Positions 7,090 through 48,078 are shown, numbered from the stretch's first letter. The stretch: DNA of 64,000 bases from an uncultured delta proteobacterium (GCA_963708295.1 CAVPSJ010000017.1:1-64000); one strand, 5' to 3'. Notes: a model not told the origin generated them from the letters alone. Made by a program: numbers and translations.

Positions 7090-7180
7090 TTAGACCAGTA
7101 TCACAGATAACGATTAGCAAATGAAATCTTGCATCATGGTCGAAGTCTGTCAGCCAACGATTACAGGAAGTACTAAATAA
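7090..7180 (+). repeat. Multi-box element, A-B half
   Basis: A 7112, B 7164; spacer nearly identical to copies at 11524 and 39885. Confidence 0.8.
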
Positions 7181-7269
7181 TCTATTATGAGTTTTAGATT
7201 TTAGTATGAGCAAAATATAAACTTTACGAGACGATTCGAATATGATGGGCCTTTGTCTGTACCTCGTGC

Positions 7270-7470
7270 CCTCACCCGGCTGTCACGGTTTGGGATGGAG
7301 GAGCCGAGATCACTGTTGGAGCTGGGCTGGATCGCAGGAAGAAAGCAGAGATGGTGATCCTTTATCAAGAGGATCTTCCGGAAAGATGGGGCGCTGATCA
7401 AAGAGTTCCAGGCCTGTCCGGATAATATAGGGTTTGGCGTAAAGGTCTGAACAGGGAAAATGGGGAGGTT
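7270..7470 (+). pseudogene. Internally deleted, decayed copy of the 3' end of the FG-GAP gene (1-406)
   Basis: Matches ~55-162 joined at AGGAT to ~305-403. Confidence 0.75.
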
Positions 7471-7525
7471 AGAAGAAATAGAATGTGATGGGGCGGGTGT
7501 CAAATCTGCAAAAGAAGAACGCACA

Positions 7526-7906
7526 CTAGAACCCAAAATTGAGACCTACTCCAAGCCTGCTGTAGCGCAAATCAGACCCGGGGGCCTTGAAAATCGGGAG
7601 CGGCGGTGTCCCCGGCTCTTTTTCTCCGGGTGAAGATTGACCTCTGCCGACTGAACTCAATCTTAAATCAAGAGAGAGTGACCCGGAGAGGGGAATGATT
7701 AGATCGGTACCACCGCGGACATTCTCGGGATTGTGGCTCAAATGGCTATGGGGGGGGAAATCCTTTGCGCTAATAGAAAAGGTCATCCCGCCGTCGCCGG
7801 CGTTCGCCACTGAGCATACCGACATGGCTGCAATCATTAATCCGACGATGAAGAACTCCTTCTTCAGTGTCGTTGATAAATTCTTCGTAGTGACCATATT
7901 AAACAA
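7526..7906 (-). CDS. Secreted hypothetical protein
   Basis: Signal-peptide-like N-terminus; C-terminal LGVGLNFGF. Confidence 0.5.
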   Translation of the reverse strand: MFNMVTTKNLSTTLKKEFFIVGLMIAAMSVCSVANAGDGGMTFSISAKDFPPHSHLSHNPENVRGGTDLIIPLSGSLSLDLRLSSVGRGQSSPGEKEPGTPPLPIFKAPGSDLRYSRLGVGLNFGF

Positions 7907-8119
7907 TAAGACATGAAATAAACATTGTCAAGAATACTCGCTCAAACCATATCAGTAGATTCAGGGGGCGTGCCCACCAGGACCATGTCCTGATCTAACG
8001 TAACCATAAGAGTCAACATGTCAAATAAAGAATCGAGTTAGCAATGTAAACCGACCCATACTTTCTCTAAGTCCTCACGACCTAACCCCACTCCTTAAAA
8101 CATTCGAGACAATCGCTGC

Positions 8120-8233
8120 CTAGCAACAAGAAGGATAATCAGAGCAGCAAAGATCATAGCAACAGCAATCATAGGTAGCAGAAGCTTTTGTTTTCGCTTT
8201 CTTCGCATCTAATTTTTTGTCTTTTTTGTTCAT
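8120..8233 (-). CDS. 37-aa peptide with Lys-rich N-terminus and Cys-rich tail (absent from ORF track)
   Basis: AGGAGG 8 nt upstream; MNKKDKKLDAKKAKTKASATYDCCCYDLCCSDYPSCC. Confidence 0.55.
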   Translation of the reverse strand: MNKKDKKLDAKKAKTKASATYDCCCYDLCCSDYPSCC

Positions 8234-8399
8234 CCTTAACACCTCCTATCTGTTTACAATTTAATCACTAAACTTAACAATTCAAGGTCAAAGAAAGAAA
8301 TTCATAGAATTACTTAACTTTCCCTCCACTCATTTTAGAATGGTCTCGGATACAAGTTTTCCCAATCCCAGAGAAACCTTCCCTTATGGTTATGGGTAG

Positions 8400-8585
8400 T
8401 AGAAGGATACCGTTGAAGACAATTATGGCCAACGGGGTTGAGGACAACGACAACTTTTCAATCAGGGGGACAGTCTTTGAGGGCTATCGGCGCCGAGGAG
8501 GGGGCCATATCCAAGGATCGAGGATTACAGATTGAAAACAGGCGCGACGAAAAGCTCAGCCGATTTCAAAAATGATTGGAAGGAT
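8400..8585 (+). repeat. Multi-box element, degenerate
   Basis: GATTACAGATTGAAAA at 8523 with TTGGAAG 53 bp later; weaker A-B pair at ~8405-8465. Confidence 0.35.
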
Positions 8586-9916: not shown

Positions 9917-9996
9917 AGGCTCAAAGAATTAACTAATTACTGAGTGAAACATCCATCATGTCCTTGAGATACCCAAATATCTGAAAGAAGCCGGGT

Positions 9997-11401
9997 CTAT
10001 ATCCTTCTTCTTGTTTTTCGTCTGGCCAACCCGTACATGAGAAGGGGTAGATTAAAAAATGCATTCGTCAAGTCGCGACGGCTCACAAGCCCAATTCGCC
10101 GCGCTTTTCTGATGATATGGAAGACCTGCGGCAGATCGTAAAACTCAGACCGGATCCGGTTCCGGATTTGCTTCAACTCTTTTCGCCCGTATTGGTCCGA
10201 ATAGACGGAGCCGCCGATACGGTTGTAATAGTACCCCGGCGTTTCTTCAACGACCTCTTTGAGAGGTGAAAACTTCTCAACCCGGAGTTTCTGGAAACTG
10301 ATGGAATCCAGCTTGATCTCCTTGGCGAACTTCGGGATGTAGAGCATCTCTTCGAGCGTCTCGCCGATGTTGCCGTAGATGAAGTACCCATGCAGATAGA
10401 AGTCGTACTGTGTCAGGGTTGAAAAAGCCTCCCGGACCTGCTGCTGGGTGATGCCTTTTTGGAGCTGATCCAAGATCCTGTCGTGCGGCGACTCGACCCC
10501 GATCAAAAAGACCTTGAATCCCGCTTTTTGGGCCTTGTCCAGGACACGCCGATGTTTCGCGACATCAATCCGGGCCTGGACCACAAAGATCTTCTTGATC
10601 TGGTTCTGGATAATCAGATCGCAAAGCTGCTCGCTCCTCCCCGGGTTCGTGAAGAAGTTGTCATCGCTGAAGAGAACGACATCCGCCGTCACCGTCTTCA
10701 GCTCTTCGACGACAGATTCGACGGTTCGCTCCGTGTAGTTCCTCTTCTGCCCGAGAGGGTTGAGACTGAACGTGCAGAATTTGCAGTTGAACGGACATCC
10801 CCTCGTGGTCAGTATCGTGTCGAAGGTGTGACTGCTGATTTGAATACCGAACTTCATCATGTGATAATCGTGTTTTCTCAGGGACCGGTCAGGAAACGGA
10901 ATCTTCGTGATGTCGGGCAGGGGGTGGATTTCGTTGTGGACGATACTTCCGTTCTTCCGATAGGAAAGCCCGCGAATATCCTTGGACGGGACTCCCGTCA
11001 CGATCTGTTTGATAATATCTTCTCCCTCACCCCGTACGATCATATCGATATTCGGACAACGGTCAAACAGGTACTGGACCTCCTCCGTCGCTTTATACCC
11101 TCCGACAACGGTGCAGACCTCGAGAGGCAGCTGGGAGACGAAATCACAGATTTCCTCGAACCGAGATTCCCATCGGATGCTCACGCAGAGTAGATCGATC
11201 TCGTTTCTTATGAAATCGCTGAGTGCCTTAGGGTCCTGGTAGGCCTTCTCATACCGAAGGTCGAGAAGAGTCAGCTTACCAACCAGGTCTTTCATGCTTG
11301 CGGCGATGTATTCCAGTCCGGTCGGAGGGAAAACCCCGATGGTTGCGGTCGCATCCCCGAAATAGGGGTTAAGGGCAAGAACATGCTTATACTTGATCAT
11401 G
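9997..11401 (-). CDS. B12-binding radical SAM protein
   Basis: PPTGLEYIAA, VRGEGE, TTRGCPFNCKFC, FSDDNF. Confidence 0.85.
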
Positions 11402-11504: not shown

Positions 11505-11702
11505 AGCTAGTATCGTAGGTAACGATTACTAAATCAAATCTTGCATCATGTTCGAAATCTACCAGTCAACGATTACAGGAAGAACTAAATGACATTTCCT
11601 TTTCGAGATTTTTGGAGCAGGCCGATGGTAAAAATTGGCGACTTCACCTACAAATCCTCAGCCTGTGCCATTACCTGGCGTTGAGGATTACTGGTAGAAA
11701 CC
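11505..11702 (+). repeat. Multi-box element, complete long form
   Basis: A 11524, B 11576, C 11645, A 11686 (52/69/41). Confidence 0.9.
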
Positions 11703-14159: not shown

Positions 14160-14332
14160 TTACTGATTTCGGCTTGAAATATTGCATTCTGAAGGAAGAT
14201 ACCAAAAACAATATTTCAGGAAGAACTCACCGGGTCAAAGGAAAATGCGACACCTCAGCAGAGTTTTGGGGAGGACACCTCTAATCTATACAATCAACAG
14301 GCTCAAGAAGTTGACGATTACCATGAGAAAGC
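14160..14332 (+). repeat. Multi-box element, complete
   Basis: A 14165, B 14217, C 14276, A 14316; perfect 10-bp inverted repeat TGAAATATTG/CAATATTTCA. Confidence 0.85.
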
Positions 14333-16414: not shown

Positions 16415-16482
16415 TTTGAGGATTATCACTTGAAATCTGGCATACCGATATGGATTCTCGACTTGAGGACTTCAGGAAACAA
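16415..16482 (+). repeat. Multi-box element, A-B half
   Basis: GATTATCACTTGAAAT 16421, CAGGAAA 16473 (52). Confidence 0.7.
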
Positions 16483-16799
16483 TGTTGCATCGCTACCCCT
16501 CGGTTGCCTAATAAATAGGTAGTCAGACCGACCACAGATTCACATGGGATACTCCAAAGAGTGAAGATTTCTTTTGAAAGTCATTGGATCATGTCCTCTT
16601 CCATCCATGCAGACGAACTTCCCACAAAATGTTTCTTGATGACTTCATCCCGAAATTAGCAGAGGCATCTCGAAAAATCAGAGGAATCCCACTTAGGAGA
16701 GACAAGCCCTCGATCTAATAAAAAGGTGAAAGGCAGGATTGGAAAACTTACTCATAAGCACCTGATCCAGAAGAAGAATTGAAGAGAAGGCCATGAGGG

Positions 16800-16975
16800 A
16801 TTATCGGAAGAGGATAGGATCAAAACCCACCGTGTTCACTCAACACAGCACCTACAAGTCATCGCTCAACGATGAGATCATGGGCTGCGGATTACGGTTT
16901 GAAATCACGTATCCAGGTGAACATATGAAAATGAAATCCTCGCTTTTTTGAGGTGTCGGAAACAGAGGGTTTATA
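16800..16975 (+). repeat. Multi-box element, C-A plus extension shared with 22667-22790
   Basis: CACCTAC 16849, GATTACGGTTTGAAAT 16890 (41). Confidence 0.75.
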
Positions 16976-22539: not shown

Positions 22540-22808
22540 CTTGAAGATTATCGTTTGAAATGTTGCACTCTGAAGGAAGATACCAAAATCAACATTTCAG
22601 GAAGAACTAAATGAAATTTCCTTTTTGAGATTTTTGGAACAGGTCGATAGTAAAATTCGGCGAGTACACCTACAAATCGTTGTTCAACGATGACATCTCG
22701 GGCTGCGGATTACGAGTTGAAATCATGTATCGCAGTTGAACATATGGAAACCAAATCCTGGCTTTTTTGAAGTGCGGAAAAAAAGGGTAGCAGATGGTTA
22801 CACCTCTC
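22540..22808 (+). repeat. Multi-box element, complete long form plus start of a second unit
   Basis: A 22546, B 22598, C 22667, A 22708, further C-like CACCTC 22801. Confidence 0.9.
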
Positions 22809-22983: not shown

Positions 22984-25890
22984 ATGAAAATCACGTCCCA
23001 GATATTCCAAGCCTACCTCAAATGCAACACTAAGTGCTGGCTCATCTCTCTCGGCAAAAAAGGCAAGGGGAACGAGTATGCCGCTTGGGTCAGAGATCGA
23101 AACGTTTCCTGTTATAGTGCGGGAATTAAACGCTTGTTTGAAGGACTACCAAAAAAGGAATGCCTTTTCCCATCTGACCAAAGAGGATTTGAAGATGCCT
23201 GGATGGCGTTGGGCTGCGAGACTTGCTGGTCGAATCTGATTTCAGTGATACCAAAACTTATAGTTTCCAGAAACTGTTGAATCGTTCACATATGAAAATA
23301 GCTTCTCAGGAATATCCGTCTGCTTCCTCGAGCGCTAGAGTTGCGTTGGCCACTCATCTTCAGGCCGTTGAACGGATTGGTTCCAAACGGGAAAGAAGAG
23401 CCACCCAATATGTTCCCATTCGCTTTATTTCGAGGTACAAGATCACCCAAGCCGATAGGCTAGTGTTGGGATTTGATGCACTCACCCTGTCGAAAGCGCT
23501 CGGGCATAACGTAATTTATGCCAAAATCATCCGAGGAGATGATTACAGCGTATCGAAAGTGAAGACCATCGTTCTATTGGGTAAGGTTCGGAAGCGAGTT
23601 GAAAAGATTGTCACTCTACTGGAGAACCCTTTTCCACCGGACCTCGTACTGAACCGAAATTGTTCCGAGTGTGAGTTCAAATCCGAGTGCCATCAAAAGG
23701 CCATCGAGAAGGATGATCTAAGCCTGTTACAAGGTATGACAGCAAAGGAACGTGAGATGAATCATAGGAAAGGGATCTTCACTGTCAACCAGCTTTCCTA
23801 CACCTTTCGTCCCCGTCGGCGACCAAAACGGCATAGAGGAAAAAGGGAAAAATACCACCATTCACTAAAGGCATTGGCGATTCGGGAGAACAAAATACAT
23901 GTAGCGGGAAACCCTGAACTTAAAATCGATGGTACGCCTGTCTGTTTCGACGTAGAAGCACTCCCTGATCGGGGTTTTTACTACTTGATTGGCCTTCGAA
24001 TCAGAAACAACTCCTCAGCCGATCAATACAGTCTTTGGGCAGACAGTGTTAATGACCAGGAAGTCATCTGGCGACAGTTCTTGGATATTTTGGCATCCGT
24101 TGAAAACCCTGTTCTCATTCATTACGGTAGCTTTGAAACCACTTTTCTTAGGGATATGACGAAGCGTTATGGTAAACCTCCGGAGGGCTCTGTTGCAGCC
24201 AATGCCATCAAATCTGCTGTGAACTTGTTATCAGTGATATTCGGGCAGATTTACTTCCCCTGTTATTCCAATGGACTTAAAGATATTTCGAGATTTCTCG
24301 GTTTCGAGTGGTCTGACCCAAATGCAAGCGGGATTCAAGCTATCCTGTGGCGAGAAAGATTGGCATAATTCACATGAGGGTGTCTTCAAGGAAAAACTTA
24401 TCACTTACAATTCGGAGGATTGTGAAGCAATTTGCCGAGTAATGGATTGTTTAATCAATATAAGTAACCGCAATTCAGGAAGTCTCCGGCACATCTGCGA
24501 ATGATTTCGTCTCACATCGATTCTTTGCCTAGCGCATTTCCCTTTCGTTATCGGAAAATCCAGTTTGCCTTCCCCGAACTTGAAGAGATAAACAGTGCTG
24601 CATACTGGGATTACCAGAGAGAGCGTTTACTTCTAAAGTCCAACAGCTCTCCTAAAACAGCTGCGCGAAGAGTAGCAAAAAGCAGAAGAATAAAACTCCG
24701 CCCTAATAAAGTGATTTCTTTTCCAGCCCCTTCCCAGTGTCCCACCTGTGGAAAAACAAAGATCTACAAGCACCAGGCCTATACGAAGACAATTCTCGAT
24801 TTAAAATATAACAACTCAGGAATTAAGAGATGGATCACAAAATACTTGTATTGCAGGTATCGATGCTGCCGCTTGTAACACAGTGTTTTTTGCTTCAGAG
24901 CGACCTTGGAACCGCAGCGAGAAATTTGGCAAAAATCTTTTGACGATGACCATCTATCTCAATATCGGGCTTCGAGTACCTCAACAGAGAGTTGCCACAT
25001 TTTTCAACGAAATATTGGGCCTCAGTTTCTCTCGGGCCGTCCCAAATAGATTCAAGTCCATTTTAGCCCTATATTATAAACCAGCCACCGAGAAACTTTG
25101 GAAAAGATCATTGGTGGCGGTTTAATTCACGCTGATGAGACGAAGGTGAATATAAAGGGACAAATAGGGTACGTTTGGGCGTTCTCCAATCTGAAGGAAG
25201 TTGTGTATTTGTATACCCCCACTCGCGAAGGCGAGTTGGGTTCTTGAACTCTTAAAGGAATTCAAGGGAGTTTTGGTTTCCGATTTCTACTCAGTCTATG
25301 ATTCACTGGACTGTCCACAGCAGAAGTGTTTGATTCATCTGATTCGTGACATGAATGACGATCTTCTCAAAGAACCTTTTAATACTGAAATGAAATCCCT
25401 TGTGGCTGACTTTGCAGCTCTCGTCAAGCCGATGATAGAAACAGTGGATAGGTTCGGCTTAAAGGCACGCTTCTTACGAAAACACAAAAAAGATGTGAAG
25501 CGATTTTTTAAGTCACTTTCACAACAAGATTTCCGCACGGATGCCGCTGCAAAATGCAAAGTACGACTCCTGAAGAACCGAAAGCAGCTATTTACATTTC
25601 TCGATTACGATAACATTCCTTGGAATAACAATAACGCAGAACATGCGGTTAAAGCGTTTGTTTATCTGCGCCGAGATATCCGTGGTAATTCAACTGAAAG
25701 CGGTATTCGTGACTATCTTATACTTCTAAGTTTATGCGAGACCTGTCGGATCAAGGGGTTGAGTTTCCTAGAATTCCTTAGATCTCAGGAAACAGACATC
25801 GACGCCTTTGCTCAAAAGCGGTTAGGAACAGTTGAAAAGATTAGCCTTGTCTGGGAACCCAAGAACTTTACTCAAACTGAAGATATCTGA
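22984..25890 (+). mobile_element. TM0106-type RecB/Cas4-like nuclease + RNase H-like domain + IS66-family transposase, split by frameshifts
   Basis: YLKCNTK, NCSECEFKSEC, FDVEA, IHYGSFE, YNSEDC, CPTCG, IHADET (~25125), GVLVSDFY, QKCLIHLIRD, PWNNNNAEHAVK. Confidence 0.8.
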
Positions 25891-25945
25891 TTGAAATCCT
25901 CAACAAGGGCGGGAAATTCCACCTTGGCGATTTCAGGAAGTACTC
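25862..25945 (+). repeat. Multi-box element, A-B half overlapping the transposase stop codon
   Basis: GATATCTGATTGAAAT 25882, CAGGAAG 25934 (52); left flank matches 47881-47915. Confidence 0.75.
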
Positions 25946-27180: not shown

Positions 27181-27730
27181 TAATGCGAATTTATTCTTCT
27201 TTCCCGCAATTGCTCCTCAGTAAACAGATAGCTTCTCCGCAGGCACTATGGAATCTTCTTCCCAGATCAACTTATCGGGGACGATAAAGATCGCATTTTT
27301 ATCTTTTACCATTTGGCCAAACATCAATTTTGCCCATCTTATGCCAGATTCAAATTGGCTTCTTCCTCTTGAACCCCTCCTTCTCTCTGTTAATACAGCC
27401 ATAAGTTCGCCTTTTTTAAGTTCATAATCCTTATAATAAACTTTATAGATTATCATCTTGCTCCCGGCTCATATATTCAGTTCTTCTAAAACCAGATATA
27501 TTGTAAAGAGAGCAAAACTCGTACCAAGTAATGTCACTATGTCTGTTCGTTCCAATTATTGAAAACGGATGATAATTCATGGTAATTTAAATAAACTCTA
27601 ATCAATTTTGTATTACCGTTGATGAAAGCCTAAGTGGAAAAGATGTTCCCAAGAGTTCCAAATCCCTTCCTGATAATGCGGAACCATTCCTGCACCCTTT
27701 ATTGATTTAGGATTGAAATCTTCTATTTTG
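27181..27730. repeat. ~550 bp module duplicated at 33565-34111
   Basis: High identity by direct comparison, ending inside the A-B spacer. Confidence 0.9.
27217..27456 (-). CDS. Small 'ERR'-family protein (paralog of 33480-33839)
   Basis: MIIYKVYYKDYELKKGELMAVLTERR. Confidence 0.65.
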   Translation of the reverse strand: MIIYKVYYKDYELKKGELMAVLTERRRGSRGRSQFESGIRWAKLMFGQMVKDKNAIFIVPDKLIWEEDSIVPAEKLSVY

Positions 27731-27880
27731 AGGAGAAATTCGAAGATCGCGGTTGCAGGAAGAACTAAATGAAATTTCTTTTTCGAGATTTTTGGACCAC
27801 ATTGAATAGAAACAGTTGCCGACTTCACCTACTCACCGATAGTGAGATGATCTCAAAGTTGGGGATTCCCGAAAGAAAGC
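27700..27880 (+). repeat. Multi-box element, complete long form
   Basis: A 27704, B 27756, C 27826, A 27864. Confidence 0.85.
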
Positions 27881-27883
27881 AAC

Positions 27884-29197: not shown

Positions 29198-29372
29198 TTA
29201 TTGATTACTATTTGTTAAATCGAAAGGTGGAAATTGAAAATCACTTTTTCAGGAAATATTAAATGAAATTTTCTTTTTGAGAGTTTTTGAGCAGGTTGAT
29301 AGTAGAATTTGGCGAGTACACCTCCTTCACAATAACAAGTCAGTCTGATAGCTGACGATTACGGATTGAAAT
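29198..29372 (+). repeat. Multi-box element, complete long form
   Basis: A 29203, B 29250, C 29319, A 29357 (GATTACGGATTGAAAT). Confidence 0.85.
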
Positions 29373-29451
29373 ACCTGAGTACAAAATTATCCGGCCATCG
29401 TCGATGGCATCAGTAAACAAACAATATCGAGGCAAATAAGATTCGCGGAGG

Positions 29452-30821: not shown

Positions 30822-30897
30822 AAGATTAGAGGAAGAAGTCCTCGTTTCCCAAAATCCAGCCGATCAAAACACCAAATTTGAAGCTTTCACCTACCTA
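30822..30897 (+). repeat. Multi-box element, B-C, interrupted after C
   Basis: B-C spacer matches 50175-50240; CACCTAC 30888. Confidence 0.65.
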
Positions 30898-30986
30898 TAC
30901 GTAACAAAATGGATTGACCGTTAGAACGGCTAAGGGTCATGATCTATTCTGCTTTTTCTTGAAAAAGAAAAGGAGGAGGAGGAGAA

Positions 30987-31568
30987 ATGACCCAGGGACA
31001 GTTGATCACCAATGAATCAACCAGAAGTGAGGATGAAGTACTACGTGGCCAGCGCCTTTTACTCACCCCCATCGACCGCATCCTTCAGAAGCTCTCTTGT
31101 CTGGAGCTTCCTGGCAAGGAACACTTCGAGTGCTATATGCGCCACAAGTGGCGCCTGAACCACAAGCCGAGGACCCTCGCCAGTTCTTTTACGTCCGCCA
31201 GGCTCTTCCTGGACTTTTATGGAAAGTCAGGCAAGAGAGAAATCGAGCAAATAGAACGGGTTGATCTGGAAGGCTTCATCGAGCACGAGCAGGACCGGGG
31301 ATTACGGATCTCCACAGTGCGAACGAGGCTTGCGTGTATTATCGCATTTGTGCATTTTCTGATGGAACAAGATGTCATCCCCGGATCCCTTCTTAAGCGG
31401 GGCATCAAGCTGAAGCTGCCGGACGTTCTGCCCCGGGCCATGAACCCCTCCGATGTGAGAAAGCTTCTCTCGGTGATGGACGACATCCGGGACCGGGCCC
31501 TGTTTCTTCTCCTTTTACGGACAGGGATACGGATCGGCGAGGCCTTGGGACTGAGGAAAACCAAATGA
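30987..31568 (+). pseudogene. Tyrosine recombinase (XerD/phage-integrase type), truncated by the repeat
   Basis: SAM-like N-domain, LPRAM, RDRALFLLLLRTGIRIGEAL; HxxR, H/W and Y regions absent. Confidence 0.85.
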
Positions 31569-33520: not shown

Positions 33521-33839
33521 TTAAGCATCCGGGCATTTTGGGATGGGCTAAACGGAAAAAGTCATAATGCGAATTTATTCTTCTTTCCCGCAATTGCTCC
33601 TTAGTGAATAAGAGCTTCTCCGCAGGCACTATGGAATCTTCTTTCCAGATCAACTTATCGGGGACGACAAAGATCGCATTTTTATCTTCTACCATTTGGC
33701 CAAACATCGATTTTGCCCATTTGATACCAGATTCAAGTTGGCTTCCTCCCCTTAAACCCCTCCTTCTCTCTGTTAATGTAGCTATAAGCTCGCCTTTCTT
33801 AAGTTCATAATCCTTATAAAAAACTTTATAGATTATCAT
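33480..33839 (-). CDS. Small 'ERR'-family protein
   Basis: Paralog of 27217-27456. Confidence 0.6.
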   Translation of the reverse strand: MIIYKVFYKDYELKKGELIATLTERRRGLRGGSQLESGIKWAKSMFGQMVEDKNAIFVVPDKLIWKEDSIVPAEKLLFTKEQLRERRINSHYDFFRLAHPKMPGCLIGRCEYANISGSY

Positions 33840-34079
33840 CTTGCCCCCGACTCATATATTCAGTTCTTCTAAACCAGATATATCGTAAAGGAGCAAAACT
33901 CATACCAAGTAATGCCACTGTGTCCGTTGGGTCCAATTGTTGGAAACAGTTGCTAATTAATGGTAATTTGAATAAATTCTTATAAATTTCGTATTCCCAT
34001 TGATGAAAGCCTAAGTGGAAAAGATGTTCCCAAAAGTTCCGAATCCCTTCCTGATAATGCGGAACCATTCTTGCACCCT

Positions 34080-34203
34080 TTATTGATTTACGATCAAAAT
34101 CTTCTATTTTGAAAGGTGGAAATTGAAAATTACTCTTTCAGGAAATACTAAATGAAATTTTCTTCTGGGTGATTTTGAAGTTTGGCGATTACCGAAGGAA
34201 ATA
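34080..34203 (+). repeat. Multi-box element with internal deletion of box C
   Basis: A 34085, B 34139, A 34187. Confidence 0.8.
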
Positions 34204-34207
34204 AACA

Positions 34208-34771: not shown

Positions 34772-34853
34772 ATTGATAGTAAAATTTGGCGAGCACACCT
34801 ACTTATCTGCGAAGCGAGCCAACCTCGAACCTTGATGATTACGGAAAGAAACG
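34772..34853 (+). repeat. Multi-box element, partial C-A
   Basis: TTGATAGTAAAATTTGGCGAG-CACCTAC 34796, GATTAC 34837 (41). Confidence 0.8.
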
Positions 34854-35539: not shown

Positions 35540-35690
35540 CCATTGATTCACGCTTGAAAATGTTGTATCGAAGACTGAAAATTAGAAAACAAGACTTCAG
35601 GAAGTTATCTTCGGAAAAAGGGATGCGGATAACACCTACGAATGTTCGCTCCAAGGTATCTCGGATGGTTAGCGATTACGGATAGAAATC
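35540..35690 (+). repeat. Multi-box element, complete short form
   Basis: A 35545, B 35598, C 35633, A 35674 (53/35/41). Confidence 0.85.
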
Positions 35691-37221: not shown

Positions 37222-37371
37222 TCATTGAATACCGGTTGAAATGTTGCAATATACTGTGAAATTGGAAAATCACTCTTTCAGGAAGGAGGCCTTGAAAAGG
37301 GGATTACTTGTTTGACCTACTACATTGCAATGGGGAGACGATCTGGGAGTTGATGATTTCCGTTAGAAAGA
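37222..37371 (+). repeat. Multi-box element, complete short form
   Basis: A 37227, B 37279, C 37314, A 37355 (52/35/41). Confidence 0.85.
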
Positions 37372-37479
37372 AAGTATAACGGACTACTAAGCCGCGTTGG
37401 CTCGAGCGGCGAGTTAGATTCATCTCTGCCGTATTTAGTTTGTATCGGTGTTTGGATCCTTTCCTCGGCGTGTTTTCCC

Positions 37480-39861: not shown

Positions 39862-39996
39862 CTTAGGCCAGTATTCGAGATAAGGATTACCAAAATGAAA
39901 TCTTGTATCATGGTCGAAGTCTGTCAGCCAACGATTACAGGAAATACTAAATGGAATTTCCTTTTTGAGATATTTGGAGCAGGTTGATAGTAAAAT
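39862..39996 (+). repeat. Multi-box element, A-B and most of long B-C spacer, fused into gene 39924-40763
   Basis: A 39885, B 39938, abrupt switch to GC-rich coding DNA after TAAAAT (39996). Confidence 0.85.
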
Positions 39997-40763
39997 CCGG
40001 TCCAGAGGGTTGACGCCCAGTTCAGGAAAGTCGCCGTAAGCTCAGGGGTGGAAGCGACGGGTCGGTGCGCCTGATAGGCTTCTCGGACCGACCGGAAAGT
40101 CTTCGGATCGAAGTATCCCTCGATCGTGGGAAGCCCGAGCTCGCTTGCCACGTGCACCTGCCGTGATTGGCCGTCGGCGTCGCGTAGCACCCGGATACCA
40201 GGAGCCCAGACGTCGAAGCCCGTTTCCACTGCCCGCTTTCTCACCGCGATGTTGACTAGGCGATGCTGCACATGGCCGTATTCCCCCCAATTGTTGTGTG
40301 TGATCACACGTTTGATCGGTGGCGCAAAGTAGGGTCGAAGGTGAGGCTTGATGGTCGCCAAGTTAACAATTGGGGCACGCTTGCAGAAATCAGTGAAGAC
40401 CTCGGCCCAAATGTCGTTGTCGACGGACCCCCAGATAGGAGTCCATCGCACGCGATAATTAAGCTCTGCGGGGAGGCTCTGGACGAGATCCTGAAATACT
40501 GGCGCGGCGGGGTAAGCTGCAAGAAGAAACTTGGTTGCAACGGGCCAGAATGGTAACATCCAGAGCACGTCGTCGTCCTGGTGGGCAAAGACAACGAGGG
40601 TCTGGCCATCGCTGAAGATCGCGACTGACTCTTGACCTCCATCTGTTGCGCGGAGTGTGCTCTGAGCAGATTTAGGTTTATAGTCTTTATGAGTGGAAGC
40701 ACATCCAAATAAAAAAACTGAAATGGAAATAAGCAATATCATGAGAAGCAATTTTTTATACAT
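39924..40763 (-). pseudogene. Lipoprotein leader + PIG-L/LmbE-like deacetylase fragment, truncated by the repeat
   Basis: LFGC lipobox, FAHQDDD, ITHNNWGEYGHVQH; last ~23 aa come from the repeat. Confidence 0.6.
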
Positions 40764-43821: not shown

Positions 43822-43983
43822 TTATGGCTTCTTAGGGTCTTTCTCTGTCTTGATTACTGTTTGTTCATAAGGTTCAGACATGAGCCGCTTCCAATCATCA
43901 AGTGGTCTGTCACCTTTGCCACTCTCAGGATGCCATTCCTTAATCCGTCTTGGCTTAGATTTACTGTTTGTCTTAATTGCCAT
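43822..43983 (-). CDS. Small hypothetical protein, duplicate of 3600-3761
   Basis: Near-identical translation. Confidence 0.5.
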   Translation of the reverse strand: MAIKTNSKSKPRRIKEWHPESGKGDRPLDDWKRLMSEPYEQTVIKTEKDPKKP

Positions 43984-44194
43984 TTGTCTTTGCCTCCTTT
44001 TGAGGCTTAACATACTTCGTCAGTTTGTACCAGACCCTATTAGGCCCTACCCCTTTATCTGAGACCTCAAACTCAGCGTGTATCTTTTCAATGGTCATTC
44101 CACTTCCTTTAAGCCAGCGAATGTGATGCATAAATTTGCATCAGGCCACTTCTCCCATATAAGATGCATTGCCTAGTCTTCTGTGGATTTTCTT

Positions 44195-44260
44195 CCGGTT
44201 ATTACAACTTGGAATCTTGTTTGGAATCGAGATTTCCAAAAATCAGGACTTCAGAAAGTA
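44195..44260 (+). repeat. Multi-box element, A-B half
   Basis: TATTACAACTTGGAAT 44200, CAGAAAG 44252 (52). Confidence 0.55.
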
Positions 44261-44416: not shown

Positions 44417-44755
44417 ATGAAAAGAATTGTATTAATAGGCACTTTATTGCTGGTCTTTGTCCTGACAGCCGGCACAGCTTCGGCTCGGGTCATTTTGCCT
44501 CCCGGGTGGCCTTTCCTCCCACCAATCATCACTCCCCCGGTAATTGAAGCACCTCCCCCAGCTTATTACCCCGATACTTATGGCTATTACTCATACCCCT
44601 ATGGTTATTATGGTTCTCGGAGTCCGGGTTACTGGGGTTATGGTGGACGGGGTTATTATGGTTCTCGGGGTCCGAGTTACCGGGGTCATGGGGGAAGGGG
44701 TTATTATGGTTCTCGGAGTCCAAGTTACCAAGGTCATGGGGGGTATCGCCGATAG
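44417..44755 (+). CDS. Secreted Pro/Gly/Tyr-rich protein with three 16-aa tandem repeats
   Basis: GAGGAGG RBS, signal peptide, GYYGSRxPxYxGxGG x3 (48-bp unit). Confidence 0.75.
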   Translation: MKRIVLIGTLLLVFVLTAGTASARVILPPGWPFLPPIITPPVIEAPPPAYYPDTYGYYSYPYGYYGSRSPGYWGYGGRGYYGSRGPSYRGHGGRGYYGSRSPSYQGHGGYRR

Positions 44756-44894: not shown

Positions 44895-45038
44895 ATGAGA
44901 GGTTTCTCAATTAACAAAAACCTATGTCTTTATTATTGGCTGAGAAAGAGAGTTAGAAAGAGGCAAACCTATAGGGTGTCCAATACTCTCGAAAAGGTTA
45001 TCCTGATTTTTGGAAGAGAATATATACAACTTTTTTGA
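44895..45038 (+). CDS. 47-aa basic small protein, paralog of 5144-5293; 3' end runs into the repeat
   Basis: MRGFSINKNLCLYYWLRKRVRKRQTYRVSNTLEKVILIFGR. Confidence 0.55.
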   Translation: MRGFSINKNLCLYYWLRKRVRKRQTYRVSNTLEKVILIFGREYIQLF

Positions 45039-45133
45039 GATTTGTCGAGCAGGTTGATAGTGAAATTTGGCGACTTCAGCTACAAACCGTGAGGATCAGT
45101 CTCCATTAAGGGTTGATGATTTCGGATTGAAAG
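45008..45133 (+). repeat. Multi-box element, B-C-A long form
   Basis: CAGCTAC 45077, GATTTCGGATTGAAAG 45118 (41). Confidence 0.8.
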
Positions 45134-45253
45134 ACAGGGTACAGCAATGTCTGAATAGTCTTCCGCAAACTTAACAAGCACCAATGGTAGAGGTTGTCTT
45201 ACCTACTCCCCCTTTTTGGTTCGCTATCGCTATGGTCTTCATTTTCTACCCCG

Positions 45254-45499
45254 TTATTGGTAAGGTGTTATCTTTCCTTCCCGAACATCTTTAAAAAACT
45301 TCTCGATGAGGTCCGTTCTCTCTTCCTCTGATTCGCAGGTTTCTACTATCTCCATTAATTCCACTAACACTTTTTCATTAACAGCCCTCATTTTTCTCCC
45401 TGTCGCTGTAAATATCTTTCTCGCAATTTCCGTCGCTTCTTTTTTCCGCTTCATTTCTCCCATCAATTCGTCTAACTTATCATCAACACTTTTTCCCAT
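45254..45499 (-). CDS. Small helical hypothetical protein
   Basis: Open frame with upstream GGAGG. Confidence 0.5.
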   Translation of the reverse strand: MGKSVDDKLDELMGEMKRKKEATEIARKIFTATGRKMRAVNEKVLVELMEIVETCESEEERTDLIEKFFKDVREGKITPYQ

Positions 45500-45607
45500 G
45501 CCTCTTGTTCCTCCATATGTAAGCCCTGGTTACTCTCTTTGCTGTATTTACTTAGTTTACACATGCTAAGATTTATAACCAAATATGAATGGAAGCGTCA
45601 ACTAAAC

Positions 45608-46218
45608 TATTGATTACCATTTGGAAGAGCGTATCGAAGGACAAAAACCACTCTTTCAGCTTACTAAATGAAATTTCATTTTCGAGATTCTTGGAGCAGG
45701 TTGATAGTAAAATTTGCTGACTTCACCTCCTACTCTTTGAGTATGTTATAAGGGTATAGGAATGGGTTTAGCTCATTCAAAAGGAAGAGGCAGGAGGACT
45801 TGAGTTTCACCTGGGTCATTGAATCCTCTTTGTAGTGTGTCCCTGCCTCCCCAAGCCATGATAGGTTGGTTGGGTCAAAGAACCCTTGTGATGATGGAGG
45901 TTTGGTGGGGAGGCATTTCCTGCCCTTCCGATCAGCAGGCTATCCAAGAGAGGCAACCGTCATGTGAGGCGTGTGATTTTCCTGATGACCCTTTGTGCGG
46001 TGAGAAGCCGTAATATCTTTAGGGAGTACTTCGTCAAGAGAAAAGAAGAAGGCCTGCCGCCCAAGAAGGCTATCCTTGCTACTGCTCACAAACTGCTGAG
46101 AGTTCTTTTTGCCAGGCTAACCCGTAAATCTTACTTTCGAACGGAGGTGGTTGAAGCATAGTTGACTACAAAGAGTGGGGATGATGCTGTTCAGAAGTTG
46201 AGGATCTCGGATGAAAGT
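45608..46218 (+). repeat. Multi-box element split by an IS110 derivative
   Basis: A 45612, B 45657, C 45724; A 46203 after the insert. Confidence 0.8.
45740..46177 (+). mobile_element. Internally deleted IS110-family element (438 bp)
   Basis: Transposase C-terminus (FREYFVKRKEEGLPPKKAILATAHKLLRVLFA); TG core at both junctions; right end has TTGACT, left end has TATAAG. Confidence 0.8.
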
Positions 46219-46234
46219 GTGTATGTTGTGAGCT

Positions 46235-47299
46235 TCAATTTTGTCTCCCTGAAGCCTTACGAAGATCATCAAGGAAGTCTCCTGGAATTTGAAAACCTAA
46301 TTCTTCCGCCCTGGTAACATCCTCCCAAGACTTGTCATATTTTCCCTTAGAATAATAGGCTTTCGCCCGATTGTAATAGAGCAACCCGAAATAAGGATCG
46401 ATCTCCAGGGCCTTGTTATAATCCGAGATCGCCAGATCATATTGACGTTCCATCGCATAAGCAGCTCCCCGATTCGTGTAAGCCAAAGTATATCTGGGGT
46501 TGATCTCTAAGGCTTCGTTATAGTTCGAGATGGCTCGACCATATTGCTGTTTCAACGAATAAACCCATCCCCGATTGTTATAGGCTTCTGCAAACCTTGG
46601 GTTGATCTTCAGGGCATTATTGTAATCAGCGATGGCCTGCTCATATTGGCCGGTGCTGCGATAGGCATTTCCGCGATTGTAGTAGGTTTCTGCATCTCCT
46701 GGGTTGATCTTCAGGGCCTCGTTATAATCCGAGATCGCCAGATCATATTGAAGTTTCTTCGCATAGGCAATCCCCCGATTCCTGTAAATCAGCGTACGTC
46801 TCGGATTGATTTTCAAGGCCTTGTTATAATCCGAGATCGCAAGGTCATATTGACCTTTATTATGATAGGCATCTCCCCGATTGTTATAGGCCTCAGCAAA
46901 TCCCGGGTTGATCTTCAGGGCATTATTGTAATCAGCGATGGACAGATCAAATTGGCCTTTGCTGTAATAGGCAATCCCCCGATTGTTATAGGCTTCAGCA
47001 AATCTCGGGTTGATCTTCAGGGCATTATTGTAATCAGCGATGGCCTGGTCAAATTGGCCTTTGCTGCGATAGGCATCTCCCCGATTGTTAAAGGCTTCAG
47101 CAAATCTCGGGTTGATCTTCAGGGCATTATTGTAATCGAGGATGGACAGATCAAATTGGCCGTTGCTGTAATAGGCAATCCCCCGATTGTTGTAGGCCTC
47201 AGCATTCCTCGAGTTGATCTCCAGGGTCGTTGTTTCAGTTTTTTCAGGGATAGTCTGACAGCCAACGATTAAAGAAACGGCCATAACTAAAATCGTCAA
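46235..47299 (-). CDS. TPR-repeat lipoprotein
   Basis: IVGC lipobox; ~9 repeats of AEAYNNRG...AIADYNxALKINP. Confidence 0.9.
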   Translation of the reverse strand: MTILVMAVSLIVGCQTIPEKTETTTLEINSRNAEAYNNRGIAYYSNGQFDLSILDYNNALKINPRFAEAFNNRGDAYRSKGQFDQAIADYNNALKINPRFAEAYNNRGIAYYSKGQFDLSIADYNNALKINPGFAEAYNNRGDAYHNKGQYDLAISDYNKALKINPRRTLIYRNRGIAYAKKLQYDLAISDYNEALKINPGDAETYYNRGNAYRSTGQYEQAIADYNNALKINPRFAEAYNNRGWVYSLKQQYGRAISNYNEALEINPRYTLAYTNRGAAYAMERQYDLAISDYNKALEIDPYFGLLYYNRAKAYYSKGKYDKSWEDVTRAEELGFQIPGDFLDDLRKASGRQN

Positions 47300-47880
47300 T
47301 AGAGCAAAAAGTTTATTTCTCGTTTCCTTCTCCTTCTACTTCCTGCAATGCGCAGATAACTCATTCCTAATTGTATCAAGGTTTGGCCCGTTTAGGCTGG
47401 AGTGGCAAAGTCGGACAACATTGCTCCTAAATTTGGTAGTGTACTTGCACCGAGATGCGGATATTCCGCATCTGGCCGTGGATCAAAACGGCCCTCCACA
47501 TTCAAATCTTGTTAATATAATAAGGACTTGGTTTGGGATGGGTTGAATATACAAAAAAATGCAGCTCCAACGTCCTTGCACTTGTATTCCAGTCTATTCT
47601 TAGAGGGCAAGTACAACAATGGGTTCAATGCCGTATTTTGAGTTAAGAATGACTGCATTTTTGGGCTACAAATTATTGTAGGGGCAAGAAGTCGGATGTT
47701 ACCGTTCTATAGATATCCGCTTGACCATGTCGAGCGTAACCGCTCAATCTCGTTTTGGTTCTCCATGGCAATTCTCCATCCCTTGCTACCTCACACCAAT
47801 TCTAGGGAGAAGGACATGGGAAAACACAATACGTTATTGATCGATTTCCCGGCCCAAAATAGTGAATAGCTTGCCACCTG

Positions 47881-48078
47881 CACTTTACCCAAACTGAAGA
47901 TATCTATTTGAAATCTGCATTGGAAGGGAAGAGGGGCGTTTCATTGATTTCAGAAAGTACTAGATGAAATTTCCTTTTCGAGATTGTCGGAGCGGGGCGA
48001 TAGTAAGATTTGGCGAGTACACCTACCTATCTTCGATGTGAGCTAAGCTTCAACCTTGATGATTACGGGGAGAAAGAT
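47881..48078 (+). repeat. Multi-box element, complete long form
   Basis: A 47899, B 47951, C 48020, A 48061 (52/69/41). Confidence 0.9.

Follow-up and report, generated by a model that had tools for sequence, protein, structure and literature searches.

The mosaic REP/BIME elements of enterobacteria are targeted by specific insertion sequences, some IS elements using REP sequences as targets. Among tyrosine-recombinase transposons, Tn916 and CTnDOT provide a precedent for coupling sequences and Tn554 a multi-recombinase comparator. Recombinase trios (RIT; PMC8138268) and strand-biased circularizing elements (PMC9345347) are further tyrosine-recombinase comparators, the tycheposon islands of Prochlorococcus are a comparator for tandem accretion (10.1101/2020.12.28.424599), and the dif modules of Acinetobacter carry pdif sites, 28-bp dif-like sequences (11-6-11) in alternating orientation on plasmids, that are recombined by host XerC/XerD (PMC6449649, PMC13141974, PMC11705084).

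Here we analyse a composite repeat in an uncultured delta proteobacterium, centred on a 64,000-nucleotide stretch of its DNA (the window); a literature search found no published description of this repeat system. We put at about even odds (roughly 0.5) the reading in which the repeat serves the recombinase family of a mobile element, Y2, as a scaffold: its crossover sites stand in direct repeat, and arms, cores and cargo reassort there. If true, this may be an undescribed bacterial way of shuffling gene cassettes, since mosaic joins fall at 7-mers also used as Y2 insertion sites.

Anatomy and spread of the composite repeat

About 22 copies of the repeat, with every motif on the plus strand, lie between positions 2,053 and 50,291 of the window, separated by minus-strand transcription units. 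A full copy consists of an AB arm (the box GATTAC-N4-TGAAAT, about 35 variable nt, then TTTCAGGAAG), a middle piece or core (70 nt and conserved, or else 30-57 or 370 nt long) and a C arm (CACCTAC followed by some 35 variable nt and the box GATTACGG-N2-TGAAA). Searches with nhmmer matched 16 AB arms, 12 cores and 16 C arms in the window, and 56, 20 and 56, respectively, in the whole 4.9-Mb genome. The range 7090-48078 given in a preliminary description covers part of the array, which has further copies at 2053-2238 and 50121-50291:

2053..2238, +, full composite of AB arm, 70-nt core and C arm (nhmmer AB 2053-2117, core 2110-2187, C 2180-2238)
2243-2270, minus-strand terminator right after this composite
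4540..4592, +, lone degenerate C arm (nhmmer C, E = 0.048)
7108..7170, +, AB arm alone, allele I; core ends 8 nt past CAGGAAG
11520..11702, +, full composite of allele I-related AB arm, 70-nt core and C arm
14161..14331, +, AB arm allele II, 57-nt short core, C arm
16417..16907, +, AB arm allele III, 370-nt long core, C arm allele X; B site CAGGAAA at 16472-16478, CACCTAC at 16849-16855, extension to ~16985
22542..22725, +, full composite of AB allele II, 70-nt core and C arm allele X
25878..25940, +, AB arm alone, adjoining IS66/ISL3 transposase fragments
27230..27731, +, ~500-bp cargo end, duplicate of 33613-34112 (620 nt, 88.9% in a longer alignment)
27700..27881, +, full composite (nhmmer and sequence)
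29203..29373, +, composite of variant box A, 70-nt core and C arm; the donor-like partner of copy 34085 in its right half
30888..31565, +, what is left of Y2, the element with two recombinases: CACCTAC, terminal repeat CTATACGTAAC, a promoter region and int1 up to about codon 190; abuts a core at the CAGGAAG-like GAGGAAA
31556..31680, +, 70-nt core and C arm (nhmmer and sequence)
31685-31711, minus-strand terminator beyond this core and C arm
33613..34112, +, ~500-bp cargo end, second copy
34081..34204, +, recombinant composite, resembling 27704 on its left and 29222 on its right; the stretch between mid-core and box C is deleted
34773..34852, +, final 30 nt of a core, and C arm
35542..35689, +, AB arm, 28-nt short core, C arm; CACCTAC at 35633-35639
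37224..37372, +, AB arm, 29-nt short core, C arm
39881..40000, +, AB arm allele I and 70-nt core truncated at 40000
44201..44258, +, AB arm alone (nhmmer E = 0.0028)
45030..45134, +, partial core and C arm
45612..45731, +, degenerate AB arm and 70-nt core
47895..48077, +, full composite
50121..50291, +, AB arm, 52-nt short core, C arm; final composite in the array

Pfam-supported genes within 1-52 kb of the window number 24 on the minus strand and 5 on the plus strand, four of the latter being mobile-element genes. Outside the array, arms also bracket solitary units at many scattered loci, and in these C..AB units the cargo is almost always on the strand opposite to the arms, which sit just outside promoter-like and terminator-like sites. 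Cassette units are mostly 1-6 kb, hold one to a few genes without an integrase remnant, and range in G+C from 0.39 to 0.615 in the window; units between the 70-nt cores differ in G+C, the cores themselves being 85-90% identical, and several unrelated core types occupy the same slot. The arms do not fold (mean MFE z = -0.27 and -0.72 for the two strands of AB, -0.44 and +0.17 for C), and we found no RNAalifold consensus structure, end hairpin or Rfam match for them. The genome encodes three RAYT-like genes above the NCBIfam cut-off, none near an arm, and no tRNA gene was found in the window.

C arms are present in 41 of 55 family genomes, with 10 to 91 matches in each genus genome. Relatives carry cassettes in other orders and places, and the array is absent beside the conserved pdxA backbone in six of them, being specific to this genome at that locus.

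Mosaic alleles and recurrent junctions

The repeat copies are recombinant mosaics with exchange inside the element, as the preliminary description had proposed: the histories of a copy's two arms show no linkage (Mantel r = 0.007, P = 0.44, 10 copies), and one arm allele stands beside differing cores and partners. Background spacer identity is 0.46, with a 95th percentile of 0.70 (595 and 630 pairs). A 36-nt A-B string thought to recur at ~7128, ~11540 and ~39902 is exact at 7128-7163 and has one mismatch at 39902-39937, none being expected (100 shuffles); the ~11540 copy, which differs at 5 of 36 aligned positions and is not within three mismatches, is a related but different allele. Allele I spacer identities are 0.97 (7108 versus 39881), 0.85 and 0.82. 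The second allele is joined to different B-C spacers as described, 14165-14227 and 22546-22608 being 87% identical (spacer identity 0.88); the 14161 copy continues into the 57-nt short core and an unrelated C arm (14224-14331), and the 22542 copy into a 70-nt core and another C arm (22605-22725). Likewise, the C-A allele common to 16849 and 22667 (16849-16912 versus 22667-22730, 84%, with likeness reaching ~16985/22780) follows a 370-nt core at 16849 and a 70-nt core at 22667; some arm alleles have 25-75 nt of common sequence past the box. The left module reported for 27704 and 34085 also recurs (27230-27490 versus 33613-33873, 93%; 27510-27731 versus 33891-34112, 89%), and the right half of 34085 matches 29222 from ..TTCTATTTTG onward with three differences in 53 aligned positions.

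Breaks in paralogous and orthologous homology recur at two 7-mers, CAGGAAG and CACCTAC, with paralog junctions offset by -4, +2 and +4 at CACCTAC and by -2 and +2 at CAGGAAG. Matches to contigs G009:C39 (9936-11582) and G004:C80 stop on the last base of CAGGAAG; G009:C292 begins homology with the right-hand cassette at 2174, 6 nt ahead of CACCTAC, and G009:C287 begins at 11641, 4 nt ahead of it. A G009 ortholog is colinear until CACCTAC and then has another arm and cargo. Among the 42 matches listed for 16100-17000, 14 start at 16463-16481 and 6 at 16848-16849, and 7 end at 16469-16482 and 9 at 16844-16867. Because cores are conserved and arms variable, some of these alignment ends mark only conservation boundaries. 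Metagenome contigs change partner at 35639, 37281 and 37358: five from run X1 match through 35639, beyond which their C arm is a different one, contigs from X2 and X8 join 35625 to 22667, and one from X1 joins 37281 (a B site) to 31568 (the start of a 70-nt core). Runs X1, X4 and X8 yielded 7, 6 and 12 contigs, respectively, with loose ends before 34187. The preliminary description had placed exchange in the A-B spacer and near B and C. B, at CAGGAAG, stands; the second recurrent junction is instead CACCTAC, ~47 nt upstream of the C box of that description and within its B-C spacer; and exchange within the A-B spacer appears once, in the 34085 copy, where it looks like homologous exchange. Metagenome contigs also contain chimeric cores, which together with this within-spacer switch fit homologous exchange.

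The further idea that each half-site travels with its neighbouring cassette describes some cases but is not the rule inside this genome. A paralogous cassette (G000:C15:100811-101826) is colinear with the 50121..50291 copy from 4 nt before CACCTAC, at 82.6% over 1 kb (C15:100815 versus window 50229); half-site and cassette also stay together in G009:C292 versus window 2174-3557, in G009:C39 versus window 9936-11582 and in C5 versus C8. In this genome, left flanks are common to 2 of 15 pairs with similar AB arms versus 3 of 580 other pairs, and right flanks to 2 of 15 pairs with similar C arms versus 1 of 615: sharing is enriched, yet not the rule. The overall interpretation of the preliminary description, which named no enzyme, is thus partly supported, and the Y2 recombinase pair is now a candidate for one.

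Element Y2 and possible origins of the mosaics

Y2 is a 2.2-kb element with two overlapping genes for Xer-like tyrosine recombinases, int1 and int2, both with R..HxxR..H..Y motifs. Perfect inverted repeats of 11 bp form its ends, and direct repeats of 7 bp flank it. In several genera the insertion point is CACCTAC in a C arm; one copy sits at CAGGAAG, and one or two interrupt a box. The 7-mer flanking the left terminal repeat is CACCTAC at 14 of 20 loci, with TTCCTAC, CAGGAAG, CTTCCTG, CGGATTG, GTAGGTG and CTTGCCA at one locus each. In seven of the eight elements with both ends visible, the 7-bp flanks are identical; in the other, inside a box, five of seven positions match (CGGATTG/CGGGATG). 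By nhmmer, a C arm adjoins Y2 at nine loci (L019, L020, L022, L033, L034, L035, L039, L041 and L042, of which L034 and L042 overlap on a single contig); at L026 an AB arm stops exactly at the Y2 end, and at L037 one is broken within its box by Y2. Decayed copies lie in or beside repeats at window 30888-31565 (L041), C11:217494-217600 and C17:393554-393895, and in metagenome contigs int1 continues past 31556. Among the 41 genomes searched for both, 11 have an int1 match and all 11 have C arms (7 to 91 matches), and all 12 without any C arm lack int1, a co-occurrence that is descriptive only, as the genomes are kin. Genus genomes mostly have many arms and Y2 only as fragments: int1 matched in only three of six searched, each match partial, broken or distant. 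No Y2 match was found at E <= 1e-20 among 72,556 plasmid records. No circular form was seen, and a search for an empty/filled site pair in three comparisons met broken synteny and found no pair.

In the reading we favour, each full copy would hold four site-specific recombination sites, box A, B (CAGGAAG), C0 (CACCTAC) and box C, with a possible common form GA(T/G)TA - 7 nt - AA(A/C)T, delimiting three exchangeable pieces: the spacers A-B and C0-C and the core between them. Successive repeats are separated by minus-strand transcription units that are self-contained, each with promoter, genes and terminator. Joined to one another, the ends of Y2 would make up a classical core site, GTTACGTATAG-CACCTAC-CTATACGTAAC, and its insertion at these sites would duplicate 7 bp. 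Its Xer-like recombinase pair may then recombine like sites in different copies, so that arms, cores and cargo are excised, inserted and swapped, which would account for the 50-kb array and its mosaic alleles; homologous exchange, between 70-nt cores and between spacers alike, would contribute more mosaics. In favour of this reading stand the clustering of the copies on one strand, the gene orientation, the motifs, flanks and targets of Y2, the junctions at the 7-mers, the unlinked arms, the uneven G+C and shifting places of the cassettes, and the co-occurrence of int1 with C arms. Against it stand the lack of an empty/filled site pair, the sequence shared past the box by some arm alleles, the conservation boundaries that some alignment ends mark, the genus genomes with many arms but only Y2 fragments, the within-spacer switch and chimeric cores, and the dissimilarity of the chromosomal site arms to the Y2 terminal repeats. 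Also against it, across 16 units the 7-mers of boxes C and A around the same cargo agree on average at 3.6 of 7 positions versus 3.7 when shuffled (P = 0.67); as they are no more alike than shuffled pairs, the boxes are weakly supported as crossover points.

It is possible, though on balance we doubt it, that arms and cores are a host-maintained intergenic mosaic family like REP/BIME, with a role in transcription or DNA organisation, spread and reassorted at its conserved motifs through template switching, gene conversion or homologous recombination, and merely targeted by Y2 as an insertion element. High intergenic copy number, fixed orientation relative to flanking genes, combinatorial build from several core types, the within-spacer switch and chimeric cores, the dissimilar boxes around one cargo and the many genomes with arms and no intact Y2 all suit this explanation. 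Against it, the arms have neither fold nor consensus structure and the RAYT-like genes lie elsewhere; the junction motifs are 7-12 nt, short by the standards of RecA-type exchange, and their 7-mers are identical to those flanking Y2; and arms move with whole transcription units of foreign G+C.

An improbable origin for the array is tandem accretion, in which integrative elements serially entered one attachment site, each leaving an att copy (a 70-nt core with element-specific arms) before its integrase gene decayed. Cores of 85-90% identity between units of differing G+C, hybrid arms resembling successive attL/attR junctions, the three decayed Y2 copies and the restriction of the array at this locus to one genome would follow. 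The small units mostly lack integrase remnants, however, arms flank single units at dispersed loci, unrelated cores fill one slot, the window lacks a tRNA gene, and Y2 is an insert with its own inverted repeats rather than the cargo's integrase.

Very improbably, single-strand transposons of the IS200/IS605 type have C and AB arms as their two ends and are moved by a Y1 (HUH) transposase that cuts after TTAC in the GATTAC boxes. TTAC is the IS608 target, all window copies share one orientation, the sole gene of a 645-nt C..AB unit (G000:C8:110534-111179) encodes an IS200-type transposase (NF033573, 138 bits versus a cut-off of 55), and C..AB units in G044 and G005 contain IS200-like genes. However, a 90% ortholog in G024 shares the gene body alone, with no arms nearby; multi-copy IS200 of G003, G053 and G010 lack arms in 3.4-kb loci; transposase homologs (E <= 1e-20) occur in 14 of 55 family genomes versus 41 of 55 for C arms, and within the genus in 5 of 15 versus 15 of 15, this genome counted; and end hairpins are absent. 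The favoured reading rejects both REP/RAYT and IS200 ends as the identity of the repeat.

Already disfavoured, and as remote, is duplication of the arms with genes as cis-regulatory leaders or trailers, shared alleles then reflecting gene duplication rather than exchange: allele I does precede two paralogous B12/radical-SAM genes (6474-7049 and 9997-11490), and arms do sit beside promoter-like and terminator-like sites, but allele I at 39881 precedes an unrelated aldo-keto reductase gene, flanks are unrelated in 13 of 15 similar-arm pairs, the arms of a copy are unlinked, and Rfam matches and folds are absent.

Comparison with known systems

The array resembles an integron in its ~20 co-oriented cassettes, its repeats with conserved ends and a variable middle, its candidate recombinases of the Xer/IntI branch, its cores as counterparts of ORF-less cassettes, and the differing cassette order and content of relatives. 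An integron was rejected, because the sites do not fold and IntI is absent. The sites have no hairpins or R''/L''-L'/R' boxes and number four direct repeats per junction rather than one attC; two recombinase genes, scoring far under IntI models, are carried on a mobile inverted-repeat element rather than a fixed intI-attI platform; cassettes have their own promoter-like and terminator sites; and single arms are scattered over dozens of further loci.

Dif modules are likewise discrete gene modules bounded by short sites for paired Xer-type recombinases, are shuffled among contexts and have sites targeted by an IS family. The present sites differ in being chromosomal direct repeats with 7-nt centres, no dif-like arms and additional spacer and core pieces, and in having element-borne candidate enzymes. 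Tycheposon islands share strain specificity, cargo modules split by repeated attachment-site relics, and decayed tyrosine recombinase genes; here the tRNA target is absent, units are much smaller and mostly lack an integrase, and arms are dispersed genome-wide.

Like other tyrosine-recombinase transposons, Y2 is small, encodes only tyrosine recombinases and is flanked by a short repeat of overlap length, and its one copy with unequal flanks recalls the coupling sequences of Tn916/CTnDOT. It differs in having two recombinases, not one or three, in 11-bp perfect inverted repeats that would join as a symmetric core site, in its absence from the plasmid records searched, and in strongly preferring CACCTAC as its target in a repeat family of the host. 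With REP/BIME the repeat shares an extragenic, oriented, high-copy and combinatorial build from few motifs and targeting by a specific mobile element; unlike them, it has no palindromic hairpin and no adjacent RAYT-like gene, its arms bound whole transcription units, and its junctions coincide with the probable 7-bp crossover sequence of a recombinase.

Modules and contents of the array

The composite repeat is divided into three profile-defined modules, an AB arm, a middle piece or 'core' and a C arm, and a full copy holds four proposed sites: box A, B (CAGGAAG), C0 (CACCTAC) and box C. About 22 copies lie at 2,053-50,291 of the window, every one on the plus strand. The window comprises 64 kb at the start of contig C17 (597 kb), part of a 4.9-Mb metagenome-assembled genome, of which it makes up 1.3%; genome-wide we found 56 AB-arm, 20 core and 56 C-arm matches, with 16, 12 and 16 respectively in the window.

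Modules of the composite repeat (all on the plus strand)
AB arm, 63 nt: box A (GATTAC-N4-TGAAAT), about 35 variable nt, then TTTCAGGAAG
Core, commonest type, 70 nt: well conserved
Core, short types, 28-57 nt, at 14224, 35605, 37286 and 50182: unrelated to the 70-nt type
Core, long type, 370 nt, 16479-16848
C arm, 59 nt: CACCTAC, about 35 variable nt, then box C (GATGATTACGG-N2-TGAAA)

Genes between the repeats read mainly from the minus strand, which carries 24 of the 29 Pfam-supported open reading frames (ORFs) in the first 52 kb; four of the five on the plus strand are mobile-element genes. Terminator-like hairpins (family D15) stand directly outside box C, and a strong promoter-like site lies at 11477-11449, just beyond box A and within the cargo, so that each inter-repeat interval looks like a self-contained transcription unit. 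G+C content per 2 kb spans 0.39-0.615. The backbone from pdxA (55.47 kb) rightwards is common to relatives, and within 9-20 kb to the left of pdxA six relatives lack the array, the sole match being one AB arm in a single genome (G011); the array is therefore not a conserved platform. Relatives carry other arrays elsewhere.

Several individual cassettes and repeats merit description. The long core at 16479-16848, between CAGGAAA and CACCTAC, contains no ORF of at least 60 aa and matches no Rfam family at E ≤ 1. Most genomes of the genus have several copies of it (70-90% identity), always between an AB and a C arm where inspected. A second cassette-like array occupies 265,596-315,526 of the same contig, outside the window, with 26 blastn matches to a repeat of about 190 nt spaced 1-3 kb apart. 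This repeat starts where a truncated AB arm stops (288041), its final 80 nt or so also precede a CACCTAC-type site on contig C4, and a piece of about 100 nt has 25 or more copies in each of two relatives (G003 and G010); the repeat seems to be a further type of core. One cassette slot of the window (22984-25890, between repeats at 22725 and 25878) is occupied by plus-strand mobile-element fragments, namely an RNase_H_2-like protein of 381 aa, an ISL3 zinc ribbon and the C-terminal part of an IS66 transposase. Paralogous B12-binding radical-SAM cassettes lie at 5466-7049 and 9997-11490; the former is broken into three ORFs here and has 1.5-kb matches at 85-90% in G008, G006, G003 and at three places in G010. 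Further along are a Gly/Tyr-rich ORF (44417-44755) with a 24-nt coding period at 44603-44746 and a TPR-protein ORF (46235-47299) with 102-nt repeats at 46395-47204. An element of 256-300 nt, 98% identical between 3591-3878 and 43813-44100 and present again at C15:290844-291148 of this genome, has several copies at 93-98% identity in at least seven genomes of the genus, and could be a MITE-like or conserved non-coding element.

Mosaic alleles and the ends of homology

The preliminary description had read the copies as mosaics of shared spacer alleles with crossovers inside the repeat. Its four allele observations are confirmed, one of them after a correction. Spacers of random copies are far less alike (mean identity 0.46, 95th percentile 0.70) than the likenesses on which that reading was built, which are thus not due to chance. 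Arms at 14165 and 22546 are 87% identical, yet run into unlike cores and unlike C arms; the C arms at 16849 and 22667 are 84% identical, and their likeness continues some 75 nt rightwards behind a 370-nt and a 70-nt core, respectively. The copy at 34085 has about 500 bp and box A in common with the copy at 27704 (93% and 89%), and about 11 nt into the spacer changes to the allele of 29222, with 3 differences in 53 positions. One 36-nt A-B allele had been listed at three places: 7128 matches it exactly and 39902 with one mismatch, whereas the copy near 11540 differs at 5 of 36 positions and is related to this allele without being the same. Comparing segments, as the same description had proposed, we found that A-B and C-arm spacer likeness are uncorrelated among 10 two-armed copies (r = 0.007, Mantel P = 0.44); the two arms of one copy have separate histories.

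The further proposal that each half-site travels with its neighbouring cassette held across genomes and only sometimes within this one. Pairs of copies with similar AB arms have a left flank in common in 2 of 15 cases, against 3 of 580 other pairs, and pairs with similar C arms a right flank in 2 of 15, against 1 of 615. Between genomes, cassettes do carry arms: 2174-3557 recurs at 93% on contig C292 of the relative G009, beginning 6 nt upstream of CACCTAC, and 9936-11582 recurs on contig C39 of G009 in a match that stops at the final base of CAGGAAG. The order of cassettes on C292 differs from that of the same cassettes in the window.

Homology endpoints recur at two 7-mers, CAGGAAG and CACCTAC. 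Among the listed matches, 42 overlap 16100-17000; at the B site CAGGAAA (16472-16478) 14 of them begin at 16463-16481 and 7 finish at 16469-16482, and at CACCTAC (16849-16855) 6 begin at 16848-16849 and 9 finish at 16844-16867. Across a span of 850 nt, 36 of 84 match ends among those listed thus fall within about 12 nt of one or other site. When the 70-nt core, itself conserved, is present in both partners, a match that stops at a 7-mer marks a conservation boundary only, and the cases with different cores are the informative ones. Within the genome, the 370-nt core stops 2-4 nt inside CACCTAC, a 3.4-kb duplicate on contigs C5 and C8 stops 2 nt past CAGGAAG, and a paralogous cassette at C15:100811 is colinear with the window (50229) starting 4 nt upstream of CACCTAC. 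Among relatives, a G004 match (contig C80) to a unit on C14 finishes at the last base of CAGGAAG. At a locus on C19, the G009 ortholog is colinear to CACCTAC and then has another arm and other cargo; this genome has there an 'empty' 100-nt unit consisting of CACCTAC, a spacer, one box, a spacer and CTGGAAG.

Metagenome assemblies contain comparable joints. In one run, five contigs follow the window as far as 35639, where CACCTAC ends, and continue into another arm; contigs from two runs connect 35625 with 22667; and one contig connects 37281, at a B site, with the start of a 70-nt core. Because these joints, from four runs of four studies, lie on short assembled contigs of at least 90% likeness, they represent alternative neighbours in communities and not activity in this organism; of the words sampled from 27000-36999, no sequencing run contains a fraction above 0.15. 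In two metagenome runs, each belonging to a different study, contigs also connect 31744 with 33536 through 9 other letters, and so are without the AMP-ligase gene at 31874-33520; these boundaries lie away from the repeat sites.

A two-recombinase element at the repeat sites

An ORF at about 30987-31568 corresponds to the N-terminal 190 codons of a tyrosine recombinase and runs into a core. Its full-length counterpart, int1, belongs to a 2.2-kb element that we call Y2, which carries two overlapping Xer-like recombinase genes, int1 and int2, with intact catalytic motifs (Pfam PF00589, 1.4e-35 and 1.4e-36). Full copies are present on C8, on C5 (95.6% over 3.4 kb) and on C12 (no difference from C8 as far as the contig runs), and their flanks differ. 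On C12 the Y2 copy, inside which the contig stops, is preceded by an AB arm and a core. Y2 ends in perfect 11-bp terminal inverted repeats, CTATACGTAAC and GTTACGTATAG, with CACCTAC flanking both sides, and so has the catalytic residues, defined ends, short flanking repeat and multiple loci that mark a tyrosine-recombinase mobile element. Joining the ends would yield GTTACGTATAG-CACCTAC-CTATACGTAAC, arranged like a classical tyrosine-recombinase core site. On XerC/XerD equivalog models the two recombinases score 138-191 bits, below the cut-offs of 330-335, and int1 has no relative in plasmid records. The IntDes recombinases of Desulfovibrio, considered as a match, are a different group with an arm-binding domain (PMC8138268).

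Y2 is repeatedly placed at sites of the composite repeat. The flanking 7-mer is CACCTAC at 14 of the 20 loci with a Y2 left end, seven of the eight elements with both ends visible have identical 7-bp flanks, and a C arm adjoins Y2 at nine loci by profile search (two of them, L034 and L042, overlap on one contig). Other placements extend the range of sites: Y2 abuts the final base of an AB arm (CAGGAAG) in G006:C140, splits box A of a full repeat in G019:C20 (flanks CGGATTG and CGGGATG), and survives as a remnant abutting a box (CAGGATG) at about 393,500 of C17. A relative of Y2 with 50% identity in G004 has a CTTGCCA flank on both sides. The flank CTTCCTG at locus L032 was not counted as a B site, no arm being detected adjoining it. 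From these placements, the A, B and C landmarks of the preliminary description and CACCTAC are all places of Y2-family recombination, and alignment of the sites suggests a common form, GA(T/G)TA-N7-AA(A/C)T.

Arms are more widespread than recombinases. A sequence-only model of the C arm matched 41 of 55 family genomes, in 17 of 21 genera, and genus genomes have 10 to 91 C-arm matches each among the matches listed, which are not copy numbers. Relatives of int1 occur in 11 of 41 family genomes and 8 of 21 genera, many at contig ends or broken. Both features were sought in 41 genomes: C arms are present in each of the 11 that match int1, and none of the 12 that lack a C arm matches int1, a co-occurrence that is descriptive only because the genomes are kin.

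Accounts of the exchange and known systems

To us the likeliest account of these observations, with a probability of about one in two, combines two processes: Y2-type recombinases would exchange material site-specifically where their sites are directly repeated, and homologous exchange between cores and between spacers would add further mosaics. Three observations weaken this account: the arms of the chromosomal sites are unlike the Y2 ends, many genomes have arms and only fragments of Y2, and some arm alleles continue 25-75 nt past the box. The boxes also fail a direct prediction, since as matched crossover points the 7-mers of two boxes flanking one cargo agree at 3.6 of 7 positions, no more than the 3.7 of shuffled pairs. 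No circle was found, nor a pair of empty and filled sites at the three loci tried, where synteny is broken; at C15:100815 and C8:110534 the conserved flank ends 60-100 nt short of CACCTAC, with the second flank adjacent in no relative, and at the C14 locus the cassette itself recurs in G004 and G012.

The main rival, which we consider unlikely, is a host repeat family resembling BIMEs that reassorts by homologous means and is merely targeted by Y2. Like REP/BIME elements, the present repeat is extragenic, high-copy and a mosaic of motif combinations, but its unit is not an imperfect palindrome by RNAalifold and minimum free energy (MFE) z-scores. RAYT-like genes passing the NF047646 cut-off are encoded at C6:70920, C5:149812 and C16:103291 (ORFs of 316-324 aa), with about five weaker paralogs. 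In the genome-wide arm list C6 has no arm, and the C5 and C16 genes have none within several kb, so the repeat is not of the REP/RAYT type; these genes may be paired with other repeat families, for example a multi-copy element of about 145 nt at locus L068 (9210-9355).

Site-specific exchange by Y2-type recombinases would have a bolder form, which we judge less likely than not: a non-integron cassette system in which a mobile Xer-like pair swaps self-contained transcription units, ORF-less cores and arm segments among four direct-repeat sites. The sites would be double-stranded with 7-bp crossover regions; the system would build arrays with at least 20 cassettes and scatter tens of sites through each genome.

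Integrons have intI beside attI at the array end, and their attC sites are imperfect inverted repeats that fold as single strands. Co-oriented cassettes are found here too, with minus-strand genes between plus-strand repeats, and the cassettes have promoter-like and terminator-like sites of their own. The sole recombinase gene of the array is the truncated int1, mid-array, and the array's left end runs off the contig. Neither Y2 recombinase is an integron integrase (TIGR02249, cut-off 265, gives 78 bits for int1 and 111 for int2, and NF011946, cut-off 435, gives 59 and 64), and genome-wide the highest TIGR02249 score, 86 bits, stays below the cut-off. RNAalifold found no consensus pairs in 35 AB and 36 C arms on either strand, mean MFE z-scores of the arms lie between -0.72 and +0.17 with at most 20% of copies below -2, and a 12-bp stem occurs in allele II only. 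Without folding or IntI the arms are not attC, and the same RNAalifold and z-score results rule out a folded site or structured RNA. The pdif sites of dif modules, recombined by the host's chromosomal XerC/XerD, are 28-bp dif-like sequences in which a 6-bp centre separates two 11-bp arms, and their orientation alternates; here the sites are direct repeats on one strand, the Y2 flanking repeat is 7 bp, the consensus has no palindromic arms around the chromosomal 7-mers, and the candidate enzymes are borne on an element.

IS200-type transposition is likewise rejected. A 645-nt C..AB unit at C8:110534-111179 (L069, 2035-2679) has as its only cargo a Y1 transposase gene (172 aa, NF033573 138 bits), and IS200-like genes lie within C..AB units in G044:C213 and G005:C69. 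The arms are not IS200/IS605 ends: they have no hairpins, and arms are absent both from a 90% ortholog of this Y1 gene and from the IS200 elements that three genomes hold in multiple copies. C arms are found in 41 of 55 genomes and Y1 homologs in 14. As mobilising enzymes IS200 (Y1) and RAYT are both rejected. Rfam gives no match at gathering scores across the whole window and none at E ≤ 1 on 16380-17000 and 22500-22800, and no tRNA or tmRNA is present in the window. The 70-nt core has an SD-like AGGAAG and an ATG frame, but TGA stands at codon 6 in at least 4 of 18 full copies and the ATG is missing in 3, so we reject it as coding; nor did two scanned copies have a recurrent sigma-70-like site that would make the repeat a promoter.

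On either reading, Y2, an element with two recombinase genes, exactly defined ends and a target 7-mer, is unreported, and the repeat family, in 41 of 55 genomes of one bacterial family, is a concrete new object; a full-text literature search, covering sources other than subscription journals, found no account of such repeats or such an element. If the cassette-system reading is true, it would offer a new recombinase and site set to study, account for strain-specific islands among anaerobes of sediments and wetlands, a widespread group, and widen the picture of how accessory genes are assembled. To our knowledge, site-specific shuffling of single genes in bacteria is known from integrons and, more recently, from the dif modules of Acinetobacter, and these are the nearest described systems. 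Beside them the present one would be a third, with a different architecture: several direct-repeat sites, no folded DNA, an element-borne recombinase pair and cassettes that bring their own promoter and terminator.
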